Shown here piece after piece: positions 4,964-55,881 of a stretch of DNA of 64,000 nucleotides (positions within the stretch are counted from its first letter, which is position 1; each line of letters opens with the position of its first letter). The translations under genes were made by a program, and so were the position numbers. The DNA comes from a virus. The stretch covers positions 32,001 to 96,000 of the IMG/VR virus record IMGVR_UViG_3300005573_000062. One strand, given 5' to 3'. Under the pieces are notes generated by a model that had not been told where the DNA came from, ran no database searches, and saw only the letters and a list, made by a program, of their open reading frames with translations.

Positions 4964-6748
4964 ATGGCAGAAGAAAAACCAGTAAATCCGGATAAATCTT
5001 CAATTCCAAATAATGATAAATTGAAAGAAGCAGAAGAGATTTATAAACGTATTGAAGCTGAAATAAAATCATCTGCAAGTACGTATAATGAATTAATGAA
5101 GTCATCCGAAAAATTTAAGGATTTACAAAAAGAGATAGTTGAATATTTTAAAGCAGGTAAAATAGATGTAGGAGTTTACGATAATCTTAAAAAAGACTTA
5201 GAAAAATCTAAAGAAGTATATAAAGAAATTGCAAAAGAAACACAAAGTACTTTCTCAAAAGTAATAGACGATACAGGCAGTTTAGCTAAAAAAGGGATAG
5301 ATGGAATTTTGGAAAAATTCGATCTATCAATGGAAACCTTAAATCTTCCAGGAATTATCTTAGCTATATTTCAAAATTTAGATGCTGCTAGAGTTATAGG
5401 TGGATTTGCAGGTGAAACAGCAAAAATTTTTGGTAAAATTGGGGATTCTGCTGGAAAAAATTTTGCAAATGAGTTTGGGAAAAGTATGACTCACGCTGGA
5501 GAAAGTACATCCATGACATTTAGATTTGTGACTGATCAACTTAGAGATCAATTAGCACAAGATTTTTTTAAGTTAGGATTACAAATACGAGGGGTAACAG
5601 GATCACAATTTGCAGCATTATCAAATGATTTAATAGTAGTTTCTCAAGCCTTTAAAATTCCATTAGATAATATAGCTAAATATACATTTGCATTTCAAGA
5701 TATTTTCAGAGTGAATACTGAGAGAGCAATGAAATCGATAAAAGATGTTATTACTAATGCATATACACTAGGGGTTGCTCCTGAAAGATTTTTAAATTTA
5801 ATAGCGAATCAAACAGAACAATTTAAATTACAAAGAATACAAATTTCTGAAGTAAGTGATACATATAGACGATTCTATCAAGGATTAGGATTAGGAGTTG
5901 AAGTAAGTGAGGAATTAACACAAAAAGTGGTATCTTCATTAGCACAACTTTCGTCAGGTAAACTTGCTGCATATATATCTCTGACAACAGGATTTACTGG
6001 TGAAGATCTAACAGATACAATGTTGGACTTTTATAGAGGGCAGGCCTCAGGACAGAATACTACAAATAGTCGTTTAGAACTAGTTCAAAATACTTTAAAA
6101 GTTCTTCAAGAAAAATTTCCTGAGATAACAAAAAATCAGTATGTAGGAGTAAAAGCTGTAATGGAAATATTTGGGATACAACAGATGGAAGTAGGTGTTA
6201 GATTATATGATGCTTTAAGTAAACAAATAAAAGGAATATCCTCAAATAATGATTTAATGAGTACTGTTAATGATATACTAACAGATACGCACAGTGCAGT
6301 AGAACAAGGATTAGGTTTAATTCTTAATGCTCTTAGTTGGCTTATACGACTTGCTCTAGGTGCTTATAATTTTTTTGTTGGTGAAATATCTGAGTCTTTT
6401 TTAACACCTTTAGAAACACAAATTCAAAAACAAAGTGCATTATTGGGTGCAAATTTCGAACCTTTAAAGATTGATAAACAAATGACAAGTAAAGGATTAA
6501 GTAAATTAGATGTAATAATGATTCAACAAGCAGAAACAAATAAACATCTAACTAATTTAACAGAAGTTACAAAAGCATCAGCTATAGCAACTACTTCATC
6601 TTTAACTGGATTACCAATGGGAGGAGGGGCACAGGCTGTAGCAGCTCAAGCTTCATTAATTAAACAGTTTGTGACATTAAAAGTTGATGTAGATCCAAGA
6701 TTAAAAGGATTTTTAGATTTTACTCAACAAAATTCAGCGACTGCATAA
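4964..6748 (+). CDS. tape measure protein
   Basis: 594 aa helical, Ala/Gly/Gln-rich protein directly after the chaperones. Confidence 0.75.
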   Translation: MAEEKPVNPDKSSIPNNDKLKEAEEIYKRIEAEIKSSASTYNELMKSSEKFKDLQKEIVEYFKAGKIDVGVYDNLKKDLEKSKEVYKEIAKETQSTFSKVIDDTGSLAKKGIDGILEKFDLSMETLNLPGIILAIFQNLDAARVIGGFAGETAKIFGKIGDSAGKNFANEFGKSMTHAGESTSMTFRFVTDQLRDQLAQDFFKLGLQIRGVTGSQFAALSNDLIVVSQAFKIPLDNIAKYTFAFQDIFRVNTERAMKSIKDVITNAYTLGVAPERFLNLIANQTEQFKLQRIQISEVSDTYRRFYQGLGLGVEVSEELTQKVVSSLAQLSSGKLAAYISLTTGFTGEDLTDTMLDFYRGQASGQNTTNSRLELVQNTLKVLQEKFPEITKNQYVGVKAVMEIFGIQQMEVGVRLYDALSKQIKGISSNNDLMSTVNDILTDTHSAVEQGLGLILNALSWLIRLALGAYNFFVGEISESFLTPLETQIQKQSALLGANFEPLKIDKQMTSKGLSKLDVIMIQQAETNKHLTNLTEVTKASAIATTSSLTGLPMGGGAQAVAAQASLIKQFVTLKVDVDPRLKGFLDFTQQNSATA

Positions 6749-43839: not shown

Positions 43840-44394
43840 ATGACAAAGTATAAAGTTATTTTAGCAGATCCACCTTGGCTATATAACGATAAAGGAAGTA
43901 ACAAGCATCCTGGAGCCCCTAGAAAATATGATTGTTTGAATATAAATGAACTTCAATCTTTGTCGATGGATTTAATAGCTGATGACAATTGTGTCTTATT
44001 TTTATGGTCAACGATGCCTATGCTCCCCAATGCTATAAGAGTAGTAGAATCCTGGGGTTTTAAGTATAAAACTATCGGTTTTGTTTGGGTTAAACGTAAT
44101 AAGAAGAAAAAAGATGGGTGGTTTTATGGGATGGGTAATTGGACGAGATCTAATCCGGAAGTTGTAATTTTGGCAGTTAAAGGTAAGCCTAAAAGAGTTT
44201 CAGCTGCTGTTCATAGTATTATAGAAGCCCCAGTAAGAATTCATAGTCAAAAGCCAGATGAGTTATATGAACGTATAGAGAAGTTATGTGGGGATGTTCC
44301 TAGAATTGAATTGTTTGCTAGAAAAAGACGGGAAGGATGGGATAGCATGGGGTATGAAATAGACGGGAAAGATATTAGAGAAATTCTAAAGTAA
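43840..44394 (+). CDS. MT-A70 family N6-adenine methyltransferase
   Basis: ADPPW, LFLW, WGF.YKT..FVWVK, HSQKP, IELFAR. Confidence 0.92.
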   Translation: MTKYKVILADPPWLYNDKGSNKHPGAPRKYDCLNINELQSLSMDLIADDNCVLFLWSTMPMLPNAIRVVESWGFKYKTIGFVWVKRNKKKKDGWFYGMGNWTRSNPEVVILAVKGKPKRVSAAVHSIIEAPVRIHSQKPDELYERIEKLCGDVPRIELFARKRREGWDSMGYEIDGKDIREILK

Positions 44395-44405: not shown

Positions 44406-44810
44406 ATGGAAAATCAAGAAATTCTTTATTCATCTGTTACTTCTGATGATGAAAAATTAATAGATACGTTATTTTCTACTTTTAATAGATTTAGATTCAT
44501 CGAAAAGGAGCATCTTTTTATTGTATATAGTCATAAATCGTTTAAAGATCATATAAAAATAGTTAAAATTCCTTCATATCTTAGTCTTTTTTTACCTAAA
44601 AAGATTGCTATTATAATAGATAAAGAAAATTGGGGCTATTTAGATAAGAATGCTAAACTAGCTCTTTTATTTTCTGTCTTTCTTAGAATAACTCCAGGCA
44701 AAAAAGAGCAATATAAATTAATTCCTCCAGATTTAAAAGGTTTTAAAGAAGCTCTTAAACTTTTCGGTATAGATAATGAGAAAGCGAATGAAGTGTTTAA
44801 AACGATATGA
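44406..44810 (+). CDS. phage metallopeptidase-like protein, lacking HExxH
   Basis: I.ID...W..L......LL and PD..GF......FG pattern, but no metal-binding His/Glu. Confidence 0.35.
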   Translation: MENQEILYSSVTSDDEKLIDTLFSTFNRFRFIEKEHLFIVYSHKSFKDHIKIVKIPSYLSLFLPKKIAIIIDKENWGYLDKNAKLALLFSVFLRITPGKKEQYKLIPPDLKGFKEALKLFGIDNEKANEVFKTI

Positions 44811-47065
44811 AAAAAGTGTTGGATGGCTATTTTGATTCAGACTACGTATATTTAATTCAAAAGGATATAGTTGGTAAGTATGAAGAAAAGATTCCTTTTG
44901 ATTGGTATTTTTATTCAGACTATTCTTTTATTGAATACATATTGAAAAATTCAAGTGTAGATTCTTTTAAAAAAGCTTTTAATATATCTAAAATCATTGT
45001 AAAAAAGCCATATTGTCAAATTTTTATTCCATACGAAAATTCCAAAAGTTTAATATCTACAATTGAAAGATATGGATTTAAAACATATGAGGGAGAAGTT
45101 GATCCAATTAAACGTTATATTATCGATTCAGAAGATTGTCAAATATCTGATGAATATAAAATATTATATTTTGATATAGAAACAGATGATAGACCAAATG
45201 CAGATAATAGTACCGATATTATTGTAGGTTCTAAATCAATTCTTAGTATTTCTGGATATTGTTCGGAAACGGATTATTTTACTATTTGTGAGGATAGCGA
45301 AATAGAAGTTCTTAGAAAAGCATTGGAAAAATTTAAAGAGTATGATATTATCGTTGGTTGGAATTCTAAGAGTTTTGACTTACCTTATATTATTAATAGA
45401 TTGAATTTTTATAAATCAAAAGGATTAGATATTGTTAAAGAAGTTAAGTTTGATTGGCATAGAATTATACATGTAGACTTAATGTGGAGATTTAAACATG
45501 TATATCAGCATAATTCAGTTCTTACTTCTTTTAGTTTAAAGAGGGTTTCTGAATATTTTAAAGTAGGAGCAAAATTAGATTTAAATAATAGAAAGATTTA
45601 TGATCTATTTATTAATGATAGAGAACTTTTAATGAAGTACAATCTTCAGGATTGTCGTTTGTTGTATGAACTTGAAAGTAAGTTAGGCATTATTCAGCAT
45701 ATGATTAGCATGGCTATTTTTTGTAAAACTTTTTTATCTGATTTTTATATCACTGAGTTATTGAATAACATTTCATTAATATATTCAAACAAATATAATA
45801 TTAGATTGGAAACTAAAAAATTTATTAATGAAAAGAAGGAAGAGTATGTAGGAGGGTATGTTTTAGATCCAGTTTCCGGTCTTCATCGAAATGTCTATAT
45901 CTTTGATTTTCAATCTCTTTATCCGAATATCATACGAACTTGGAATGTTTCTCCTGACACGCTTTTGAATGAATCGAATGGAGATTGTATAAAAAGTTGT
46001 TTAGATGGGGTATTTTTCAAGAAAGATAAAATGGGATTACTCCCGTCGATAGAAACATATCTTTTGAATTTGAGAAATGAATATAAAGAAAAGAAAAAAG
46101 CACTTAAAAAAGAAGGCAAGGAAAATTCAGTTGATTATTCTGTAGCAGATAGAAATGAAAAAATTATAAAAGAACTAGCAAATTCAGTGTATGGGGCTAC
46201 AGCAAACAATAGATCTAGATTCTTTGATCTTAGATTAGCTGAATCAATTACATTAGCTGGTCAAACATTAATTAAATTTGCTAAAAAATTTTTTACAGAT
46301 TTAGGATTCGTTGTTGTTTCTGGGGATACAGATTCTATTATGGTTTCTCTTAAAGATGGGTCAGACTATAAATTTTTATTAGATAAATTTCACGCTGAAT
46401 TGGACAAATTTTTATTTTCAACTTATAATACTTTGAATCCTACCACTCGTTTTAAATATGAAAAACGATTTGATAAATTTATTGTTATTAAGAAAAAAAA
46501 TTATGTGGGTAGAGTAATAGATGATGGATCTCCATGCGATACAATTTACGCTAAAGGGTTAGAGTTGATTAAGAAAGATACGATAAAATATACTAGAGAA
46601 AGATTGTCAGAATTGATAAAGAATTTATTATACACTGATAATCCATTAGATTTCTATGTTAAATATATAGAAGACGAATGGGAAAAGATAAATACGATTA
46701 ATGTAAATCCAGAAGATATAGTAATAACTAAGAAGATTTCTAAAGATTTTTCTGAATATAAATCTCTTCCTATGCAGGTTAAAATTGCTAAAAAAGTCTG
46801 GAATTCTAACAATAAAGATTTTTTTATCGGAATGGACTTTCAATATGTGATTAAAGATTCTCTAGACAAAGAGAATAAAGCTATCTGGGTAGGTGAATTT
46901 GATGGTAAATTCGATAGAAATTATTATTGGGAACACCTTATTTATCCACCTTTTAGGAGAATTTTAGAGGTCGTATTTCCATCGTATCAATGGGATAAGT
47001 ATGAACATGGTAAATATTGGATTAAACCGAGTCGTTCCAGAAAAAAGGCATTGAAAAAAAGTTAA
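44807..47065 (+). CDS. family B DNA polymerase
   Basis: Exo FDIETD, GWN...FD, YN..D; pol DFQSLYP, K...NSVYG, GDTDS, KKNY. Confidence 0.95.
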   Translation: MKKVLDGYFDSDYVYLIQKDIVGKYEEKIPFDWYFYSDYSFIEYILKNSSVDSFKKAFNISKIIVKKPYCQIFIPYENSKSLISTIERYGFKTYEGEVDPIKRYIIDSEDCQISDEYKILYFDIETDDRPNADNSTDIIVGSKSILSISGYCSETDYFTICEDSEIEVLRKALEKFKEYDIIVGWNSKSFDLPYIINRLNFYKSKGLDIVKEVKFDWHRIIHVDLMWRFKHVYQHNSVLTSFSLKRVSEYFKVGAKLDLNNRKIYDLFINDRELLMKYNLQDCRLLYELESKLGIIQHMISMAIFCKTFLSDFYITELLNNISLIYSNKYNIRLETKKFINEKKEEYVGGYVLDPVSGLHRNVYIFDFQSLYPNIIRTWNVSPDTLLNESNGDCIKSCLDGVFFKKDKMGLLPSIETYLLNLRNEYKEKKKALKKEGKENSVDYSVADRNEKIIKELANSVYGATANNRSRFFDLRLAESITLAGQTLIKFAKKFFTDLGFVVVSGDTDSIMVSLKDGSDYKFLLDKFHAELDKFLFSTYNTLNPTTRFKYEKRFDKFIVIKKKNYVGRVIDDGSPCDTIYAKGLELIKKDTIKYTRERLSELIKNLLYTDNPLDFYVKYIEDEWEKINTINVNPEDIVITKKISKDFSEYKSLPMQVKIAKKVWNSNNKDFFIGMDFQYVIKDSLDKENKAIWVGEFDGKFDRNYYWEHLIYPPFRRILEVVFPSYQWDKYEHGKYWIKPSRSRKKALKKS

Positions 47066-47079
47066 AAACGTTATATAAT
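47051..47079 (+). promoter_or_regulatory. sigma70-type promoter of the nucleotide-modification operon
   Basis: TTGAAA-17-TATAAT, ATG 8 nt downstream. Confidence 0.75.
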
Positions 47080-47087
47080 ATAAACAT

Positions 47088-47783
47088 ATGAGAGAGTGTA
47101 TAAGATGTGGGAAAAGTATTCCTAGTATTCCTGGAGTAGATAAATGTATAAGTTGTTATAATAAATCGAGAGATTTTAAAAAATTAAAAATTTCTGAATA
47201 CTTCGGTATGTTTCCTTTGGATTTTGGTTGGAGTTTTTATTTGACACCTGAGGAATATTCTTTAATTCCAGAAACGAGATCTCTAGGAATGTATTTTAAA
47301 CCTTTTGTTTATGAGATATTAAATAAAATAGAAAAGAAAAATAAAATAGTAAAATTTTTTAAAGATATTGTTTTTAAATATAGTGAAATATCTACTTGTA
47401 ATAGAAGAAAGGTTGGAGCAATTATTACCATTAATGATCGAATAATTTCAACTGGGACGAATGGTAGTGTATCAGGACTGCCTCATTGTGATGAAGATGG
47501 GTGTTTAATAGAGGACAATCATTGTGTTAGGACTGTTCATGCTGAAATTAATGCAATATTAAATTGTGCAAATCTTGGAATTTCATTAAAAGATTCAATA
47601 TTATATTCTACTGATTTTCCTTGTTTTAGATGTATATCTGCTATTGGCAATTCAGTTATTAAGTCAGTTGTCTATTTTAGAGACTACAAGGATAAATATA
47701 ATAAAAAGATTTTATCTGGAATATCACATAGGATAAATTTTTATTATTTCGATGGTAATCTCATTAGGAGGAATAATGGATAG
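47088..47783 (+). CDS. dCMP deaminase with N-terminal Zn ribbon
   Basis: STC.RRKVGA, TG.NG, HAEINA, PCFRC. Confidence 0.9.
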   Translation: MRECIRCGKSIPSIPGVDKCISCYNKSRDFKKLKISEYFGMFPLDFGWSFYLTPEEYSLIPETRSLGMYFKPFVYEILNKIEKKNKIVKFFKDIVFKYSEISTCNRRKVGAIITINDRIISTGTNGSVSGLPHCDEDGCLIEDNHCVRTVHAEINAILNCANLGISLKDSILYSTDFPCFRCISAIGNSVIKSVVYFRDYKDKYNKKILSGISHRINFYYFDGNLIRRNNG

Positions 47784-48039
47784 ATATAATATACCGAAAG
47801 GAAATAGTAATTTGAGTGAAATCCTTGGGTTGTTGAATACTAACGATTTCTATTTTCATATAACGTTAACGGCTCTCATTGAGCTATTAAAAGAAAAGAA
47901 AGGGCCGGACGGTAATCCTTTGATTACTGAGGAAGAAATAGAAATTAAAATCAAAGACGTTAGAGATAGAACAATGAATCAATTGAAAATAATTTCACCA
48001 GCAGCTGGAAAGATAATAACTGATAAGGAGATAAAATGA
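47776..48039 (+). CDS. hypothetical protein
   Basis: AGGAGG before ATG 47776. Confidence 0.65.
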   Translation: MDRYNIPKGNSNLSEILGLLNTNDFYFHITLTALIELLKEKKGPDGNPLITEEEIEIKIKDVRDRTMNQLKIISPAAGKIITDKEIK

Positions 48040-48434
48040 AAAAACTAATAGTAATAAGTATATTATTGATAGCATCTGCAGTAAAAGCAGAGATGTTTTC
48101 AAACCTGCAACCTGCATCATTTAGGGATGTTCAGCATGGAGTATGGTATTTTGGTGGTACTACTAATGTGTATAAATATAAAGTAGTATCACTTGATGTT
48201 GGTCTGATTAAAAATTCAGAGATCCAGGAGAATCTATTTCCAATTGGCGGTATCATGTTTTATGGAAGAGAATTTCTTGCAAATAATCCCAAATTAGCTA
48301 AATTGTCAGAAAGCATAGATTTTGACAAGAATCTACTTAAATATATTAACATTGGATTTTGGGGTGGAAAGAATTTTAACGTTAGTAAATGGATGTGGGG
48401 ATTCTACTTTGGATTCAGAATTGAAATTAAATAA
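48036..48434 (+). CDS. secreted beta-strand protein (outer-membrane-like)
   Basis: Signal peptide MKKLIVISILLIASAVKA; terminal amphipathic aromatic strand WGFYFGFRIEI. Confidence 0.6.
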   Translation: MKKLIVISILLIASAVKAEMFSNLQPASFRDVQHGVWYFGGTTNVYKYKVVSLDVGLIKNSEIQENLFPIGGIMFYGREFLANNPKLAKLSESIDFDKNLLKYINIGFWGGKNFNVSKWMWGFYFGFRIEIK

Positions 48435-48772
48435 TGGAGAATAATATGGATATAGATAATACTCAAGCTAAATTAAAGGAATGGAGATCAAAAAATTTTA
48501 AGGAAATAACAGATCAACAACAATTGATGGGAATAATGGAAGAAGTAGGAGAGTTATCACACGCTATGCTTAAGTGGAAACAAGGGATCAGAGGATATGA
48601 TAAAAAAAGAGCATATGAAGAAATGCAGGATGCTATTGGAGATATGATTATATTTGCGATGGGATTGTGTGATGTTTATGGATGGAAGATGTCTGATATA
48701 ATTAAAAAGACTTCTGATTATGTTTTGACTAGGGATTGGAATAAAAATAAAATAGACGGGCATAATAAATGA
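48434..48772 (+). CDS. MazG-like nucleotide pyrophosphohydrolase
   Basis: EEVGEL...DAIGD. Confidence 0.88.
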   Translation: MENNMDIDNTQAKLKEWRSKNFKEITDQQQLMGIMEEVGELSHAMLKWKQGIRGYDKKRAYEEMQDAIGDMIIFAMGLCDVYGWKMSDIIKKTSDYVLTRDWNKNKIDGHNK

Positions 48773-50043
48773 CAATTATCGATACTATTATAATTGGGGC
48801 AGGGCCTACTGGATTGAGTGCCGCTTATCAACTAAATAAGTTAGGCAAAGATTTTGTTCTATTCGAAAGAACTAATAAAATTGGTGGATTATGCGGCACT
48901 TTTGGGGATAGTATTATATTTGATAAAACTTCTCATATATTTTTTTCTAAAGATCCTGAGATTCTAAAATTAGTTAATGTTTTTGATCTTAATATATATA
49001 ATAGAAGAGCAGTTGTTAACGTTAATAAATATTTAATTCCTTTCCCTGTTCAAAATAATATTGGGTCCTTTCCAGATGAAATAAAAATTCAGATTTTAAA
49101 AGAAGTGTGTAGTTTAAAAAATAAGAAATCAAACAATTATAAAGATCATTTAATAAATACTTTTGGGAAAACTTTATTTTCAACTGTATTAAAAGATTAT
49201 AATAGTAAAGTTTGGAACTATGATTTATCTAAAATGGGGACATACTGGTTTGACGGTAGAATATGTTTGTTGACGATGGAGCAAATATTAAATTCAATGA
49301 TTAATAAGAAATCTTGGGGTCCTAATAGTATATTTTATTATCCAGTAGGATCTTTTTTTAATAGACTTTTTACTCCTCTTATAAAAGATATACCATCTGA
49401 TCGAATATTATTTAATACAGTAATAACTAATATTGATCTCGTAAATAAGAAAGTAGTAGTTAATAATAAACATGAATTTAAATATAATAATTTAATATCT
49501 ACGATGCCTTTAGTTTCTCTTTGTAAAATGTTAAAACTAAAATGTGATTTTCCTTATACTGATGTCATAAATGATGCTATTAGTGTAAAATTGGATTCCC
49601 CAGTCGATCATAAATTTCATTGGATGTACTATTCAAATCCTAAATTTCCTTATTATCGAATTTTTAATTTATCTTCAGTCAATACTTCAATATCTAACAC
49701 TGAATTACGATTTTTATGTGAAATCTCTTTTAAAGACAATTCTGTTCCATCACATAATGTTGAGGCTTTGTTAGGTCAAATTTTATATGATTTTGGTATT
49801 ATGCAACCTTATGAAGTTAAGATTGTTAATTCTTATCATGTTAAGTATGCTTATCCTATTCCAATAATAGGTTTAGAGAAAAGAGTTAAAAAGATTCTTG
49901 ATTTTCTGGATTCTAAGAATATTTATTCAAGAGGAAGATTTGGTGCATGGAGTTATAAGTATGGCAACACTGACCATGCTATTAGATACGGTTTAGATGT
50001 TGCTAATAGAATCGCAGAAAACAAAAAGGAGTCATTAGTATGA
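48769..50043 (+). CDS. FAD-dependent UDP-galactopyranose mutase-like enzyme (eukaryote-type motifs)
   Basis: GAGPTGL, H.FFS, P.QNN, YN.KVW, WGPN..F.YP, PYYR, YAYP.P, GRFGAW.Y..GN.DH. Confidence 0.75.
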   Translation: MTIIDTIIIGAGPTGLSAAYQLNKLGKDFVLFERTNKIGGLCGTFGDSIIFDKTSHIFFSKDPEILKLVNVFDLNIYNRRAVVNVNKYLIPFPVQNNIGSFPDEIKIQILKEVCSLKNKKSNNYKDHLINTFGKTLFSTVLKDYNSKVWNYDLSKMGTYWFDGRICLLTMEQILNSMINKKSWGPNSIFYYPVGSFFNRLFTPLIKDIPSDRILFNTVITNIDLVNKKVVVNNKHEFKYNNLISTMPLVSLCKMLKLKCDFPYTDVINDAISVKLDSPVDHKFHWMYYSNPKFPYYRIFNLSSVNTSISNTELRFLCEISFKDNSVPSHNVEALLGQILYDFGIMQPYEVKIVNSYHVKYAYPIPIIGLEKRVKKILDFLDSKNIYSRGRFGAWSYKYGNTDHAIRYGLDVANRIAENKKESLV

Positions 50044-51161
50044 GAGTGGGATATTCTTTTTGGGGAATATTTTCTGAAGTAAACGTTGATATGCCATCGA
50101 CCATAAATTCATACGTTCCTTGGATTATTCTTGGATTGCTTGAAAAAAAGTGTAAAGTATATCCTCTTCAAATCAATTTAGATGAACACTTTAGTAGAAA
50201 ATTTAATAAAAAGATAAATTTTACATATTTATATGATTCATACTCTATCGAAAAAGTATATAAGCATCTTTTTGAAAATTCTACAATCATTCCTGGAATA
50301 TCACTTCCAGATTTAGATTTAGTGATAATAGATTGGAGATGGCCGATTCCAGGAAGAAATACTGAAAAAGATAGAAAATTTCCTGATTTTACTCCAGATT
50401 TAGTTCGGCAGAATGAGATTTTGGAACATTATTCAAAAAGAAATACACAAATAATAGTGCTAGATCTTGATCATAAAGTTACAATAGAAGATGAAAAGAA
50501 ATGGGAGTTTCACATCATAGAACCTGCTATTCAGCCTAAAAATCAATATATAAAAAGGGTTTCATCTGTTTTGCCTTATAAATTTTTTAAAATATATTAT
50601 CAGGGAATGAAAGATAGAAATTCTTTGATAACATATGTTGGAAACAATTATGAAAGAGAAAGAGCTATTAATGAATATATTTATCCAATATCGACAAAAG
50701 ATAGATTTAAAAATAAAATAACTTTTTATGGAAATTGGATAAAATATGATAAAGTATATAAAGAGTTAATAACTAAATGGCCTTATTTTAATTATTTAGG
50801 TAAGGTAACAAAAGAAGATTATTTATATGTATATGGGAAAAGTTATACTACTCCATTGCTAGCTAAAGATAGTTATTATAAGTATGGTTTTATGACCCCT
50901 AGGCAGATTGAATCTGTATTGTATGGGTGTATTCCTGTTGGTTTTTCTGAGCATTTAGGTATTGATAAATTTATTCCAAAGAAATTTATTGTTAAAGATT
51001 ATAATGAGTATATTAATCTTTTAAATGAGTTATTATCTGTAACGGAAAGAGACTATAATAATTATCTTCATTCTTTTGAAGACTTTTTTCATATGTATGA
51101 TTATAAAAAGTTTGCAGATTTGTTACTAAAATTATGTGAGGAGGCTCCGTGCCTCTTATAA
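50040..51161 (+). CDS. GT-B glycosyltransferase (putative DNA glycosyltransferase)
   Basis: YVGN.YER, FYGNW, Y.GKV, FMTPR.IES..YGCIP, resembling the C-terminal motif of T4 beta-glucosyltransferase-like enzymes. Confidence 0.7.
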   Translation: MRVGYSFWGIFSEVNVDMPSTINSYVPWIILGLLEKKCKVYPLQINLDEHFSRKFNKKINFTYLYDSYSIEKVYKHLFENSTIIPGISLPDLDLVIIDWRWPIPGRNTEKDRKFPDFTPDLVRQNEILEHYSKRNTQIIVLDLDHKVTIEDEKKWEFHIIEPAIQPKNQYIKRVSSVLPYKFFKIYYQGMKDRNSLITYVGNNYERERAINEYIYPISTKDRFKNKITFYGNWIKYDKVYKELITKWPYFNYLGKVTKEDYLYVYGKSYTTPLLAKDSYYKYGFMTPRQIESVLYGCIPVGFSEHLGIDKFIPKKFIVKDYNEYINLLNELLSVTERDYNNYLHSFEDFFHMYDYKKFADLLLKLCEEAPCLL

Positions 51162-51685
51162 TTTTTGATTCTTATGATTGTGCAGGGAAAACGACTTTAC
51201 TTAATGAATTTATTAAAAAGACAAAGTACCCTATATCTGAATCGTTTTTAAATCAAAGACCGAAATTCAAGAACCCCGATGAGAATTATCTCTGGTCGAA
51301 AGCATGGCACTATGGTATTCTTGGAATTCTTAAATCCTGTGATATTAATTTAGTAGTCGATCGGTTTATAATGTCTGAATATTGTTATTCTATTGTTCTT
51401 AGAGGTTATAAAATTGATTACTTTGATGATTATATTAAAGAACTAAAAAAATGTAAAACCAGAGTGACCTGGGTTTACCCGACACTAAATAATAGTAATT
51501 GGTTAAAGGAGCTTAAAAGAAGATATACTGATAAAAAAGAGGATTATATAAGTTTTAATAAGTTATTATCAGTGAAGAAAATGTATGATTCATTATTTCG
51601 CAGTTTTTCTTTAACTAAAATTAAGATTAATACTATGGAATCTATAGATAAGTGTATTGATAGATTAACAGGAGAGTTGTCATGA
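51149..51685 (+). CDS. deoxynucleoside monophosphate kinase
   Basis: P-loop D.YDCAGKTT, VVDRF..SEY.Y. Confidence 0.8.
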   Translation: MPLIIFDSYDCAGKTTLLNEFIKKTKYPISESFLNQRPKFKNPDENYLWSKAWHYGILGILKSCDINLVVDRFIMSEYCYSIVLRGYKIDYFDDYIKELKKCKTRVTWVYPTLNNSNWLKELKRRYTDKKEDYISFNKLLSVKKMYDSLFRSFSLTKIKINTMESIDKCIDRLTGELS

Positions 51686-52395
51686 AGATAATAAAGTTGG
51701 AAGAAATTGATATTAATAAATATACTAATTTTTCTTGGGATTTGCAAACTGATTTATTGAAATACGAGGATGACCTGATTTCTAAGGATGCTGCTTGCAT
51801 AGAAATGAGTAAATATAAATTTTCAGATTCCCGAGTACTTAATTTTTTGACTCTTACTTCTTTGCCTTTTTATACTAGAGAAGATGATATTCATTCTTCT
51901 ATTCTATCCCTTCTGTGGGGATTTACTAAATGTTCTAAATGTGACACTACTGTAAAAAGATACACAGGTATTACGGGGAATCTAAAACCGAAATTTCTAT
52001 TTATAGGAGAGGCTCCAGGGGTAGGAGATGGGGAAAAATCTATAATGGATAGAACACTAGTATATGGTCCGACATCTCATTTAGTTCGTCAGACTCTATT
52101 AGAACTTGGACTTATACAGTATAGTGCATTTACGAATTTATTAAAATGTTCTTTACCTAACAACAGACCAGGATATGCGAATGAATATTCTAATTGTCTT
52201 TATTTTCTTCAAAATGAAATAAATGCGCTAAATCCGAAAGTAGTTATTCTTTTCGGATCTCGAGTAAATACTTATTTATCTAAACATTTAACAGTTCCTT
52301 TTATTAAAATAAATCATCCGACCTATTATATTTATGAACATAAAGAGCATTTATTTAAAGAAGAATTAAATGCTAAAATAATTAAATATCGTTAA
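51682..52395 (+). CDS. uracil-DNA glycosylase family 4-like protein
   Basis: CSKC, FIGEAPG, TNLLKC, NR, C...L..EI..LNP, HP. Confidence 0.85.
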   Translation: MKIIKLEEIDINKYTNFSWDLQTDLLKYEDDLISKDAACIEMSKYKFSDSRVLNFLTLTSLPFYTREDDIHSSILSLLWGFTKCSKCDTTVKRYTGITGNLKPKFLFIGEAPGVGDGEKSIMDRTLVYGPTSHLVRQTLLELGLIQYSAFTNLLKCSLPNNRPGYANEYSNCLYFLQNEINALNPKVVILFGSRVNTYLSKHLTVPFIKINHPTYYIYEHKEHLFKEELNAKIIKYR

Positions 52396-52409
52396 CATTT
52401 GGAGGAACA

Positions 52410-53324
52410 ATGATTGAATATTTAAGTGTTGATAGAATTAATCATATAATACAAGGGTATAACATAAATGATGTTTTTTTAAAACTAGCAGAACATATAC
52501 TTAGCAAAGGTAAAAAAGTTTCTCCTCGTGGTATAAATACATTAGAAGTTAGTCCTCTTATGACTATTATAGAAAAACCTTCTGATAATATTATTTTATT
52601 TAAAGAGAGAAAGTTGAATAGATTATTTTCAGCAATGGAATTATGTTGGATTTTAAGTGGGGATGAGGATCCATGGATTATTGAATATTTAAAAACTTTA
52701 AATAATTATACTGATGAATTTGAAGGAAAAAGGTATCTAATGGGAGCGTATGGTCCTAGGATAAGAAAGTATACAGCAATTGATCCTATTACCAAAAAAG
52801 TGGATACTATTGATCAGTTGAAATATGTTGTAGATAAACTGTCAACGGATAAAGATAGTAGACAGGCTATTATAGTTATTTGGAATCCCACAGCAGACAC
52901 AAGGAAAAATAAGGATATTCCCTGTACAAATCTTATGAAATTTTCAATTAGGGATAACAAACTTAATATGACAGTATTTATGAGAAGCAATGATTTATAT
53001 CGTGGAAGTTGTTATGATTTTTTTAATTTTACTTCTATTCAATGTCTTTTAGCAGGTATTTTAAATGTTCAAATCGGAACTTACTATCATATTGCCGATA
53101 GTCATCATATCTATGAGTCAGACATTTCAAAGATTGAAAATATTTTAAAAAATTCAGATACTATAAAAACAGATTTTCCTGAAATAATTAATTCTGAAAG
53201 ATATATATCTATTGATGAATTAGATGCTGATCTAAAAGGTAGAAATGCTCCTTTGATACATAATAAATATATATCTAATCTTTATAGGTGGGTCGATGAA
53301 AATAAGAAAAAGAATTTGCTTTAA
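52410..53324 (+). CDS. thymidylate synthase homologue, dCMP hydroxymethylase-type
   Basis: AYGPR, DSRQA, DIPC, MRSND......YD (Asp at the position of ThyA Asn177), S.HIYE. Confidence 0.85.
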   Translation: MIEYLSVDRINHIIQGYNINDVFLKLAEHILSKGKKVSPRGINTLEVSPLMTIIEKPSDNIILFKERKLNRLFSAMELCWILSGDEDPWIIEYLKTLNNYTDEFEGKRYLMGAYGPRIRKYTAIDPITKKVDTIDQLKYVVDKLSTDKDSRQAIIVIWNPTADTRKNKDIPCTNLMKFSIRDNKLNMTVFMRSNDLYRGSCYDFFNFTSIQCLLAGILNVQIGTYYHIADSHHIYESDISKIENILKNSDTIKTDFPEIINSERYISIDELDADLKGRNAPLIHNKYISNLYRWVDENKKKNLL

Positions 53325-53484
53325 CTGTGGGAAAGTTAAAAGTATTAAATATTTTACTTCTGATTTTAGAATTTGTAATACTTGTTTGAAAGAAAAACTT
53401 GAGTATTCAATCAATCAAGTCAAAGAAAAGAGTAATGACATCTTGAGATATAACATAGCTTTTTTTAAGAGGAAATTGAAATGA
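53296..53484 (+). CDS. small Zn-ribbon protein
   Basis: CFNC...CNTC. Confidence 0.55.
   Translation: MKIRKRICFNCGKVKSIKYFTSDFRICNTCLKEKLEYSINQVKEKSNDILRYNIAFFKRKLK
53449..53468 (+). promoter_or_regulatory. candidate phage late promoter motif
   Basis: TATAACATAGCTTTTTTTAA upstream of the ATG at 53481. Confidence 0.5.
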
Positions 53485-53795
53485 AAAAGCTTTTCGATTC
53501 AGCTAAAAAATATATAACCGAAAAAGATTTTGATTATTATCAAGACTATTTGCAACTTAGAAAAATGTTATATGAATTAATTGTTGAATTTAAGTATGAG
53601 TTGAAAAATCAAAATATTTCTTTAGTAGAAATTGCAGATATAAATACAATTTTAAAGGATTTTGATTCATACGTAGAAAGTATTGTTAAACACTCTCCAG
53701 ATAATGAAAATGAGTTAGAAAATTATTTAGTTGAAAGATTAAAACATCTTTTTGGAGTAGAAAAATTTGATATTAATTTTGAAATAAAAAAATAA
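53481..53795 (+). CDS. hypothetical protein
   Basis: 104 aa ORF with GAGG RBS. Confidence 0.65.
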   Translation: MKKLFDSAKKYITEKDFDYYQDYLQLRKMLYELIVEFKYELKNQNISLVEIADINTILKDFDSYVESIVKHSPDNENELENYLVERLKHLFGVEKFDINFEIKK

Positions 53796-53837
53796 CTGTG
53801 TACATAGTGTTGTAAAATTTGATATAATTTTAGAAAG

Positions 53838-54248
53838 ATGATCATAAAAGACTGGGATAATCACCTCCAATATCTAGTTAGGAAATTTTTTGAGTCTCCT
53901 TTAGATGACGCAACACTTAAGGAATACCTATTTAAAAAACACCAAATCGACGATACTGAAGAAAAAGACGAAAAAGTTAGAAAGCTTAAAATCATTTTTC
54001 ATCTTTTGCACAATAATTTTTTCGCTCCTCAAGAAACTAAAGTATTGTCGCTATATCTAGGATGGATGAATGATCGTTGGATCAAACCTAGAAAAATATC
54101 TGATATTGCTAAAATAATGGGTATTAGTCAGGCGGTTACTTACAACTATTTTATGAATGCAGTTAAGAAGTTAAGGAAGTATTTCTCGGTCGAAAATAAT
54201 AGGGAGGACTATTATGGTAATAAAAGAAGCCGAAAAGGTTCCGTTTGA
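53838..54248 (+). CDS. sigma70 region-4-like HTH protein
   Basis: E.KVL.LY.G...KISDIAKIMGISQ..TY.....AVKKLR. Confidence 0.75.
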   Translation: MIIKDWDNHLQYLVRKFFESPLDDATLKEYLFKKHQIDDTEEKDEKVRKLKIIFHLLHNNFFAPQETKVLSLYLGWMNDRWIKPRKISDIAKIMGISQAVTYNYFMNAVKKLRKYFSVENNREDYYGNKRSRKGSV

Positions 54249-55881
54249 GACATTTCAGTTAGCTAAAAAGTATATAAAAGGAGATCCAGAAGGAAGTTAC
54301 GAAAAATTTTTAGATATAAGATCTGCTATTTATGAAGCTACAAATGAAGCGATTTCTGATCTGATAAGTAATAAAGGAATATATGTAGATAGAAAAAAAT
54401 TATCAGATTTTGATGAATTTTTAAGAGATTTTATTTCTAATTCTCCAAATGATCCATCACAACTCGATTCTTATATTGATGATAAAATTTTTAAATATTT
54501 GACTTCGACTATTGGTACTTCAAAAAGGAGAGTAACAAAAGAAAAGAAACCAGTTGTCGAAGAGGTTGAGAAAAAACCGGTTGAAGAAAAAGAAGTTGCC
54601 AAAAAAGTTAGAGAAAAAGGAATAGATCCTTATGAAGTGGAAACTCGAAAAATAATAAAAGATATAAGAGATGGAGTGAATTACGATGAAAACCTTTCCA
54701 AATTATTTGAAATGTATATAGATATGATTAAAAATATTGTATATAAGCATCCAGGCTTAGTTGAATTTTCAGCAAGAGAATCTGAAGGATATAAAAAAGA
54801 AAAGATACCTGGTTCTGTTTATATCGATCCTAAGATAGAAGACATTATTGCAGAAGCAATCGATCCATTTATGAAAGCGATTAAAGATTTTGATTTAGAA
54901 GGAGACACGAAATTTTCTACTTTTTTATATACCTATGTTGATCAATATTTTAAGAATTTGTATACTACTAAACAAATTTCAAAACTGCGCCAAGAAGGTG
55001 AGTTTGATTTTGTTTTAACTCGTGATACCGGAAAAATAGATAAATTAGAAGATTATAATTCAGCGAAATTAATAGGATTCAATATTGAGGAAAGTAAAAT
55101 AATAGATAGCACTGGGAAAGAATATATTGAAAATAAGGATTATAAGTTTGATGGTACAGAGATAGAATGGATTGGAGATTCTCCTAAAGAAGGAAATGAA
55201 TATCAAATTTTTATTGAAACATCTAAACCATACAAAGAGATTAGCTTATCTTCTCCTCTATCAGAGGATGAAGAATCTGAATCAACTTTAGAAGAAACTA
55301 TTCCTGAATCTTCTGTAGATATTTTAAAATTATTAGAATCCGAAGCTGATAAGATAAGAGAACAATATGCTCAGTCTGTTGGGTATGATTTAAGTGAAGA
55401 AGATAAAGACATGGGAGATCTAATAAATAAAATATGGGTGGCGATACGCGCCGAAGAGGAAGACAAAAAAAGAAGATTAGAGGACAAAGAAATTAAGGAT
55501 ATAATTTTGAAAATGATAGAAAATTCTACTGGAATAGCAATTAGTGATCTTGATTTAGAAGATACAGAAGAAAAAATTTTATATGATAAATTAGTATCGG
55601 CTGTTGATGAAATTTATAACTATCTTGTAAAAGAAAAATTAACGATTACTGATGCTAAAAAGAAAATGACTTTTTTTGATTTAATACAAGATTACGATGA
55701 AGGAACAGCTAGAAGGATAATGATGGATAGGTTTGGAGTTATTCCTTCTACCCTGACAGAGTGGCTAAGTAGGCATGTGAATCCTAGTATCGCTAAAGTG
55801 CTAGGGATAGAATTTAATACCCCAGATGGTAAATTATCATCTGAACATTTATACCAATTAATAAAAACTCAAGCTAAATAA
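54214..55881 (+). CDS. large sigma-factor-like protein (regions 2-3) with Ig-like insertion
   Basis: L...Y..MI..IV, EDII.EA...FMKAIKDFD....KFSTFLY (region 2); ISL.SPL.ED....TLEETI (region 3). Confidence 0.65.
   Translation: MVIKEAEKVPFETFQLAKKYIKGDPEGSYEKFLDIRSAIYEATNEAISDLISNKGIYVDRKKLSDFDEFLRDFISNSPNDPSQLDSYIDDKIFKYLTSTIGTSKRRVTKEKKPVVEEVEKKPVEEKEVAKKVREKGIDPYEVETRKIIKDIRDGVNYDENLSKLFEMYIDMIKNIVYKHPGLVEFSARESEGYKKEKIPGSVYIDPKIEDIIAEAIDPFMKAIKDFDLEGDTKFSTFLYTYVDQYFKNLYTTKQISKLRQEGEFDFVLTRDTGKIDKLEDYNSAKLIGFNIEESKIIDSTGKEYIENKDYKFDGTEIEWIGDSPKEGNEYQIFIETSKPYKEISLSSPLSEDEESESTLEETIPESSVDILKLLESEADKIREQYAQSVGYDLSEEDKDMGDLINKIWVAIRAEEEDKKRRLEDKEIKDIILKMIENSTGIAISDLDLEDTEEKILYDKLVSAVDEIYNYLVKEKLTITDAKKKMTFFDLIQDYDEGTARRIMMDRFGVIPSTLTEWLSRHVNPSIAKVLGIEFNTPDGKLSSEHLYQLIKTQAK

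Follow-up and report, generated by a model that had tools for sequence, protein, structure and literature searches.

We analysed a 64,000-nucleotide stretch of viral DNA (the window) that comprises bases 32001–96000 of the 126,098-base IMG/VR virus record IMGVR_UViG_3300005573_000062, the completeness of which is estimated at 71%. The window has a G+C content of about 28–30% and encodes a tail sheath protein and replicative helicases; its source is an uncultured, contractile-tailed phage. Directly behind the gene for a family B DNA polymerase (PolB) lies a block of nine plus-strand open reading frames (ORFs), which an earlier note, made by a model from the letters alone, had read as a tightly coupled operon for a furanose-glycosylated hydroxymethyl-pyrimidine in DNA. 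Our analysis confirms the observation and, as far as computation reaches, supports the interpretation: each of the note's refuting conditions that could be checked by computation was decided in favour of its reading. The block probably encodes a pathway in which cytosine is replaced by 5-hydroxymethylcytosine (5hmC), as in phage T4, and the new base is glycosylated from a furanose donor. Searches of the block proteins against Pfam, PHROGs and NCBIfam, together with the sequence and structure comparisons described below, gave the following features.

44807–47065 (+): family B DNA polymerase (PolB), a 752-residue ORF directly upstream of the block, with the motifs FDFQSLYPNI and SGDTDS read by eye only

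47051–47079 (+): promoter-like site TTGAAA-17-TATAAT, with 11 of 12 consensus matches

47088–47783 (+): deoxycytidine monophosphate (dCMP) deaminase whose N-terminus is extended by about 85 residues (PF00383, 1.2e-17 over residues 98–197; phrog_174, 2.6e-37)

47752–48039 (+): 95-residue ORF without a Pfam or PHROG match

48036–48434 (+): 132-residue ORF with a hydrophobic, signal-peptide-like N-terminus (MKKLIVISILLIASAVKA), read by eye, that overlaps both neighbours

48434–48772 (+): MazG-like nucleotide pyrophosphohydrolase (phrog_715, 1.1e-7)

48769–50043 (+): homologue of flavin-dependent UDP-galactopyranose mutase (UGM) of the long, 'eukaryote-type' class (PDB match 4dsg)

50040–51161 (+): GT-B glycosyltransferase (GT) of 373 residues from an unnamed family resembling T4 beta-glucosyltransferase (BGT), assigned by fold model and profile comparison

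51149–51685 (+): P-loop nucleotide kinase, with weak matches to phrog_761 (3e-8) and TIGR00041 (5.6e-7, below cut-off)

51682–52395 (+): family-4-like uracil-DNA glycosylase (UDG; PF03167, 2.2e-11, above cut-off)

52410–53324 (+): predicted dCMP hydroxymethylase of the thymidylate synthase (TS) fold (PF00303, 1.9e-30)

Neighbouring genes of the block overlap by 1–32 nucleotides or are separated by gaps of at most 22 nucleotides, and the tight packing is therefore real; the mutase and GT genes share a 4-nucleotide overlap. Seven of the nine ORFs are the genes that the earlier note had named, and the two small ORFs of 95 and 132 residues were missing from its list. The same note had placed a single promoter at 47051 at the head of the operon. 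The site at 47051–47079 is the top plus-strand match within positions 46500–54300, but this AT-rich region holds 60 promoter-like sites, no excess over shuffled sequences (53.0, s.d. 7.6). The site is therefore a consensus match and not evidence of a promoter, which leaves the single promoter unproven.

The nature of the modified base can be read from the TS homologue. We aligned it with E. coli ThyA, T4 gp42, RB69 gp48, RL38J1 gp216 and SPO1 gp29, using E. coli ThyA numbering throughout. At positions 126, 143, 146, 167, 169 and 177 the homologue has R, D, C, S, D and D, identical to T4 gp42, and Cys146 is invariant in the TS alignments. Position 169 is Asn in the 5-hydroxy-dCMP synthases RB69 gp48 and RL38J1 gp216, and position 177 is Asn in ThyA and in the dUMP hydroxymethylase SPO1 gp29, whereas the window's homologue has Asp at both sites; it shows neither the D169N signature of 5-hydroxycytosine (5hoC) nor the N177 signature of uracil. 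According to Lee et al. (NAR 2026, PMC13326640), specificity for cytosine is set by Asp instead of Asn177, non-methyl products (hydroxymethyl rather than methyl) go with an acidic residue where ThyA has Leu143, and Asn instead of Asp169 marks every 5-hydroxy-dCMP synthase assayed there. Zhao et al. (PMC5175136) ascribe the choice between deoxyribo and ribo substrates to residues 167 and 126 (Ser/Arg versus Ala/Lys). The best PDB match of the homologue is MilA (4.7e-25; PDB 5b6d, 5jnh), the CMP hydroxymethylase of mildiomycin biosynthesis, which likewise has Asp at 143 and 177 but carries Ala/Lys where the window's homologue, T4 gp42 and ThyA have Ser167/Arg126. The gp42-like signature together with Ser167/Arg126 therefore predicts the conversion of dCMP to 5-hydroxymethyl-dCMP, in agreement with the hydroxymethylated deoxycytidine of the earlier proposal. 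No second TS and no ThyX was found in the 126-kb record, although at 71% completeness this is not proof of absence.

Searches of Pfam, PHROGs and NCBIfam with the GT gave no match, and neither did phmmer against PDB chains. An AlphaFold2 model computed from a six-sequence alignment (pLDDT 81.5, pTM 0.84) has a GT-B fold, consistent with the GT-B assignment made earlier. A Foldseek search with this model ranked T4 BGT fourth (2.2e-9), and VIA-align placed T4 BGT (1nzd) first, with a Z score of 20.8 and a root-mean-square deviation of 3.6 over 301 residues at 15% identity; 734 of the 998 aligned chains had Z scores of at least 8, and all of those listed are GT-B enzymes. Profile comparison of the GT family with T4 BGT by hhalign (probability 77.9%, E 1.9e-5) aligned 187 columns of the C-terminal, donor-binding half. 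Residues R206, R288 and E291 of the GT, which are invariant in its family, align with Arg195, Arg269 and Glu272 of BGT, its UDP-binding residues. Both the likeness to BGT and the presence of a hydroxymethylase-type TS neighbour wherever the flanking sequence suffices point to DNA as the acceptor, as the earlier note had supposed, and we infer that the GT is a DNA 5hmC furanosyltransferase.

Kinship with the GTs of published 5hoC systems was considered and rejected: hhalign detected no relation between the GT family and RL38J1 gp215, RB69 ORF050 or RB69 ORF052 (probability 0.2 each). A tblastn search with the GT against 50,697 GenBank phage records returned nothing. A word-indexed protein search had found only six relatives of the GT, which suggested a rare family; that impression was overturned by the DNA-pattern scans described below.

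The gene in front of the GT encodes a flavoenzyme that matches the Pfam families NAD_binding_8 (7.2e-13) and Amino_oxidase (3e-10) and carries the FAD-binding GxGxxG Rossmann motif as IIGAGPTG at residues 8–15. It does not fall among unrelated oxidases: an end-to-end alignment with the UGM of Trypanosoma cruzi (TcUGM; PDB 4dsg) pairs its residues 6–415 with positions 12–451 of the chain (4.3e-45), and it also matches the UGM of Aspergillus fumigatus (1.3e-38; PDB 3uka, 3ute). The entries for bacterial Glf proteins in the PDB align only over residues 3–156, the FAD-binding N-terminus. PMC4192007 names His62, Val63, Arg176, Asn201, Tyr317, Arg327, Tyr395, Arg423, Tyr429 and Asn433 as active-site residues of TcUGM. 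Located in the PDB alignment by the relation chain index = residue + 3, their counterparts in the flavoenzyme are H56, I57, R164, N186, Y287, R297, Y362, R390, Y396 and N400; nine of the ten are identical, with Ile in place of Val63, and these nine are invariant in an alignment of 13 relatives.

A database search with the flavoenzyme returned two close homologues (75% and 72% identity) and several hundred bacterial proteins of about 450 residues (27–34% identity). It is nearer to these unstudied bacterial proteins than to the eukaryotic UGMs (216 versus 157 bits), with which it has full-length homology and the GxGxxG motif in common; it is about 60–85 residues shorter than they are and, unlike them, is phage-encoded among genes of DNA metabolism. 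Since the UGM residues are invariant among the aligned bacterial relatives as well, its sequence places the flavoenzyme in the long class of UGMs, within a bacterial lineage that nobody has studied. The resemblance to fungal and trypanosomatid UGMs claimed in the earlier note is real, but the nearest relatives are bacterial.

A tblastn search with the mutase among the 50,697 GenBank phage records yielded just three faecal contigs, all unannotated and 24% identical. Full-length homologues of the long class (26–28% identity) are also encoded by four further IMG/VR contigs (L021, L022, L023 and L027), where neither a TS homologue nor a GT of the window's kind lies within 8 kb; phages thus carry this mutase type in other settings too. 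A long-class mutase alone is therefore no marker of DNA modification.

The comparative evidence is the strongest part of the case and decides how the block is read. DNA-pattern scans derived from the GT alignment recovered 10 viral loci, 328 metagenome stretches and 106 bacterial-genome stretches. We analysed all 10 viral loci, 80 of the metagenome stretches and 80 of the bacterial-genome stretches (mostly Actinomycetes), scanning six-frame translations of all 170 loci with hidden Markov models (HMMs) built from sequences of this analysis. Pfam confirmed the seeds of the model for the bacterial mutase Glf (from L002, L010 and L011) and of that for the plant-type protein RGP (from L005, L006 and L008); a further RGP, on the plus strand of L004, was assigned by our own HMM. 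A homologous kinase stands beside the GT in 10/10 viral loci, and a TS homologue is present in 8/10 viral loci, in 19/80 metagenome loci, many of which are contigs of 1–3 kb, and in 74/80 genome loci. At positions 143, 146, 169 and 177 these TS homologues read DCDD in seven viral cases (and ECDD in one), in 17 metagenome cases (with one VCDD and one cut off) and in all 74 genome cases. The cytosine-hydroxymethylase signature is thus present in 99 of 101 neighbouring TS homologues, the remainder being one variant and one truncated sequence, and none of those read has D169N or a retained N177. The residues R126/S167 are found in 8/8 viral, 17/19 metagenome and 72/74 genome homologues.

The GT family is also linked to mutases. 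Removal of nine duplicates left 81 distinct viral and metagenome loci, 37 of which contain a pyranose–furanose mutase: Glf in 15, RGP in 20 and the window's type in two (L046 and L047), whose GTs are 80% identical to that of the window. Where at least 2.5 kb is available on both flanks of the GT, a mutase is present in 23 of 29 distinct loci; the six without one comprise two of the actinomycete kind (L122 and L123) and four that are phage-like (L059, L094, L102 and L118). Most often the mutase gene comes first and is followed by kinase, GT and, last, TS and/or deaminase. The neighbourhood for which the earlier note had suggested a search recurs widely in viral and metagenome loci. Two variants of the cassette were seen in passing. 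One locus (L010:11094–13151, +) encodes a Glf domain fused to about 335 further residues without a Pfam match (685 residues in total), and in L071 and L075 two GT paralogues each stand beside Glf, hinting at di-glycosylation in some phages.

We compared mutase type with GT phylogeny in a quick tree of 84 rows with SH-aLRT support only; GT segments shorter than 300 residues, exact duplicates and 72 of the 80 genome loci were excluded, and seven of the eight genome loci offered entered it. In this tree, 18 of 19 RGP-linked GTs fall in one 40-row clade (support 99) that contains no Glf-linked row, and the window's GT, with those of L046 and L047, is sister to the Glf-linked GTs of L002 and L048 (SH-aLRT 93). 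We read this pattern as one gene slot filled by three interchangeable mutase families, with GT clades that track the mutase type; the eukaryote-type mutase in the slot is the new element of the window. On this reading, a long-class UGM catalysing the same reaction would have taken the place of Glf in the lineage of the window. This favours galactofuranose here, where the GT groups with Glf-linked GTs, and arabinofuranose or another furanose for the RGP-linked clade.

Distant homologues of the GT (24–29% identity) also occur on actinomycete chromosomes of many genera (L126–L205). In 74 of these 80 loci they are accompanied by a TS homologue that shows the complete signature of a dCMP hydroxymethylase and in every case shares the strand of the GT homologue. 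The cassette of a Micromonospora sp. chromosome (L149:2356–10756) encodes an SDR epimerase, the TS homologue, a carbamoyltransferase (PF02543/PF16861), the GT, a P-loop kinase, a methyltransferase, an APH kinase, a histidine phosphatase and a second APH kinase; it may be a cluster for a nucleoside natural product, a cassette for DNA modification or the remnant of a prophage.

The assignments of the remaining genes of the block differ in strength. The deaminase, UDG and TS homologue named in the earlier note all score above Pfam thresholds; its MazG and deoxynucleotide kinase do have family matches, but these are weak. For the MazG-like protein, the Pfam MazG and MazG-like matches fall short (0.003–0.005; 17–18 bits versus cut-offs of 22–27), and its predicted role as the dCTP-clearing enzyme is drawn by analogy with T4 gp56. 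The P-loop kinase, a presumptive kinase of hydroxymethyl-dCMP, showed no likeness outside the P-loop to RL38J1 gp214 (E 0.16) or RB69 ORF045 (E 0.010) in BLASTP. The 132-residue ORF has no family match in Pfam, PHROGs or NCBIfam. The N-terminal extension of the deaminase (47088–47350, +) contains two CxxC pairs (CIRC...CISC) and resembles a zinc ribbon.

The UDG matches the family-4 models NF040953 (2.7e-16) and TIGR00758 (1.4e-14) under their curated cut-offs. Its GEAPG and HPT motifs and four cysteines were read by eye against the family-4 motif definitions. A homologue with 39% identity lies in the equivalent cassette of L011 (L011:7764–8507), and besides the window, a family-4-like UDG accompanies the mutase–GT cassette in 8 of the 81 distinct related loci (L011, L046–L048, L062, L074, L103 and L111), its gene in many cases placed between those for kinase and mutase. 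The window also encodes an MT-A70-family DNA methyltransferase two genes before PolB (43840–44394, +; PF05063, 1.4e-30; phrog_359, 2.4e-77), and the phage probably methylates adenine as well, as T4 does with Dam.

What the analysis shows directly is how the genes are ordered and coupled, to which families the enzymes belong, which signature residues the TS homologue and the mutase have in their active sites, what fold the GT has, and that this GT family recurs beside hydroxymethylase-type TS homologues and beside mutases. We consider a T4-style pathway of cytosine replacement and glycosylation with a furanose donor to be the probable function of the block. The scheme that follows is prediction with respect to every activity, to the role of DNA as acceptor, and to which sugar is attached and in which anomeric form. 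The MazG-like enzyme would degrade dCTP to dCMP, which the TS homologue would hydroxymethylate; the P-loop kinase and then the nucleoside diphosphate kinase of the host would raise the product to hydroxymethyl-dCTP, and the adjacent PolB would build it into DNA. The dCMP deaminase would divert part of the dCMP to dUMP for thymidylate, and the UDG probably keeps uracil out of the modified DNA. The flavin mutase would convert host UDP-galactopyranose to UDP-galactofuranose, from which the BGT-like GT-B enzyme would attach the furanose to 5hmC at its hydroxymethyl group, with duplex DNA as the substrate, and the glycosylated DNA would be shielded from host nucleases. The record also encodes, outside the window and about 75 kb from the operon, a 320-residue NAD-dependent SDR epimerase/dehydratase beside an amidase-like gene (L019:880–1842, −, equal to about 5772–6734 of G000:C1), whose best solved match is the UDP-glucose 4-epimerase 4zrm (7.8e-15). 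It could supply UDP-galactopyranose, but is too distant in sequence and position to be counted as evidence.

Several observations weigh against this pathway. RGP proteins are also classed as glycosyltransferases (GT75), such that their role as mutases in phages is assumed, and only three seed sequences went into each of the GLF and RGP HMMs. No mutase occurs in any of the 80 bacterial-genome loci, which means that the GT family is not tied to furanose as such, and the four phage-type loci with long flanks noted above lack one too. The tree carries no bootstrap values. In the structural comparison, BshA, TarM, PimA and others lie within 1 Z unit of T4 BGT, and the profile match to BGT reaches a probability of only 78% and is confined to the donor-binding half. 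The virus record is only 71% complete. The nearest bacterial relatives of the flavoenzyme (30–34% identity) are uncharacterised and, where labelled in the source, are called protoporphyrinogen oxidase or FAD oxidoreductase. Finally, the histidine loop of the flavoenzyme is T54-S55-H56, with the His kept and both Gly residues absent, and PMC3624792 calls a Gly-Gly-His loop unique to eukaryotic UGMs; the consensus of the flavoenzyme's bacterial relatives does show GGH.

The alternative that survives best, although we regard it as unlikely, is that 5hmC in the DNA is glycosylated with something other than galactofuranose: the flavoenzyme might act on UDP-L-arabinopyranose or UDP-GalNAc, or the GT might use a pyranose while the mutase serves another purpose. 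The unusual histidine loop and the uncharacterised nearest relatives would fit such a substrate, as would the RGP-type proteins of sister phage lineages, known members of which act on UDP-L-arabinose. However, all sugar- and phosphate-binding residues of TcUGM named in PMC4192007 are conserved, the window's GT clusters with Glf-linked and not with RGP-linked GTs, and the mutase and GT genes overlap by 4 nucleotides.

A second alternative, which we hold to be quite improbable, places the target outside DNA: the mutase and GT would alter a glycan of the host surface or a virion protein, and their placement among nucleotide genes would be incidental. The usual products fed by UGMs are glycans of the cell surface, PMC6630229 interprets the UGM of an Agrobacterium phage in this way, and the four IMG/VR loci with a long-class UGM have no such TS or GT nearby. 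Against this reading stand the nucleotide kinase that flanks the GT family in 10/10 viral loci, the hydroxymethylase-type TS in 8/10 viral and 74/80 genome loci, the resemblance of the GT to T4 BGT in profile and fold, and the position of both genes inside a translationally coupled block with kinase, UDG, TS and MazG.

We give very little credence to a third alternative, in which the acceptor of the GT is not DNA but a hydroxymethyl-pyrimidine in free form, as nucleotide or nucleoside; the same may be true of the actinomycete cassettes, which resemble those for small molecules. The Micromonospora GT homologue does sit in the cassette listed above, with its SDR epimerase, carbamoyltransferase, methyltransferase, histidine phosphatase and APH-type kinases, and no replication genes are nearby. 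Yet the phage block adjoins PolB, its kinase makes a triphosphate route possible, all known phage glycosylations of hydroxymethylcytosine and 5hoC are on DNA according to PMC13326640, and even among the genome (actinomycete) TS homologues 72/74 have the deoxyribose-type residues R126/S167. It is just as improbable that the base is 5hoC, the one found in RB69, DLP3 and RL38JI, or the 5-hydroxymethyluracil of SPO1, since, although a dCMP deaminase heads the operon and the closest phage proteins by tblastn include SPO1 gp29 and other annotated dUMP hydroxymethylases (30–38% identity), position 177 is Asp, the cytosine type, where SPO1 gp29 has Asn, and position 169 is Asp where all 5-hydroxy-dCMP synthases assayed in PMC13326640 have Asn.

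With T4-style replacement of cytosine and furanosylation as the preferred reading, we put forward a fuller scenario more tentatively. The phage DNA may carry galactofuranosyl-5hmC, an undescribed base; the unnamed BGT-like GT family may be furanose-specialised in phages, its donor having been supplied three separate times by bacterial Glf, plant-type RGP/GT75 and eukaryote-type UGM; and the chromosomal branch in dozens of actinomycete genera, with its dCMP-hydroxymethylase-type enzyme and carbamoyltransferase, may point to an unrecognised cellular chemistry of 5-hydroxymethyl-deoxycytidine. Sugar-coated cytosines are one of the main means by which phages evade cleavage by restriction enzymes and CRISPR nucleases as well as defences based on DNA glycosylases, and they drive the evolution of type IV restriction. 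Furanose on phage DNA has so far been shown only as arabinofuranose on 5hoC, and a furanosyl-5hmC, if true, would be a new DNA base with a resistance and sensitivity profile of its own. The GT family, widespread as the scans found it, would offer a new tool for site-selective labelling of 5hmC, and the three interchangeable mutase families in one slot constitute a natural experiment from which donor specificity can be assigned to GT clades.

Known systems of DNA modification invite comparison. The earlier note knew of no DNA glycosylation fed by a UGM, a claim that is now outdated: Lee et al. (NAR 2026, PMC13326640) propose that Glf of the Rhizobium phage RL38JI feeds galactosylation of 5hoC. 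RL38JI and the Pootjesviridae resemble the window in that a phage UGM is proposed to serve DNA glycosylation and that kinase, GT and TS homologue are adjacent. They differ in that the RL38JI TS homologue has D169N and makes 5hoC, whereas the window's keeps D169; that the RL38JI mutase is a short Glf of the bacterial type, encoded at a distance from the GT gene, whereas the window's is long-class and beside it; and that the RL38JI GT, gp215, does not resemble the GT family of the window at the profile level (hhalign probability 0.2).

In RB69 and DLP3 the furanose is established. Their DNA contains arabinofuranosyl-5hoC, ether-linked on 5hoC, and the UDP-Araf donor derives from ribulose 5-phosphate through an isomerase, a kinase/uridylyltransferase and a phosphatase (PMC13326640). 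The window shares with them a furanose on a C5-modified cytosine, as predicted here, and a gene cluster beside the polymerase gene; it differs in that their UDP-Araf route has no mutase, and ORF050 and ORF052 of RB69 are unrelated to the window's GT by hhalign. In the limited collection of literature searched, we found no link between UGM and 5hmC, no link between RGP or arabinopyranose mutase and phages, no paper that combines hydroxymethylcytosine with a carbamoyltransferase, a GT and a TS, and no description of the window's GT family; on galactofuranose with hydroxymethylcytosine and on furanose hypermodification in phages, only Lee et al. proved relevant, and a speculation on a second GT in Enterococcus phages appears in Duerkop 2016.

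A further parallel is the glucosyl-5hmC pathway of T4, in which the dCTPase gp56, gp42, the deoxynucleotide kinase gp1, the dCMP deaminase Cd and the alpha- and beta-glucosyltransferases follow the same logic and fill the same set of roles as the block. The window's TS homologue has the gp42 signature, its GT is BGT-like in profile and fold, and in both phages the modification block adjoins the DNA polymerase gene. The two differ in several parts: dCTP would be cleared in the window by a MazG-like enzyme and not by one of the gp56 type; the kinase bears a weak resemblance to thymidylate kinases; the GT shares only 15–16% identity with BGT and comes from a distinct family that has no name; and a family-4 UDG forms part of the block. 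The window's operon also contains a sugar-nucleotide mutase, which implies a furanose donor rather than the UDP-glucose used by T4.

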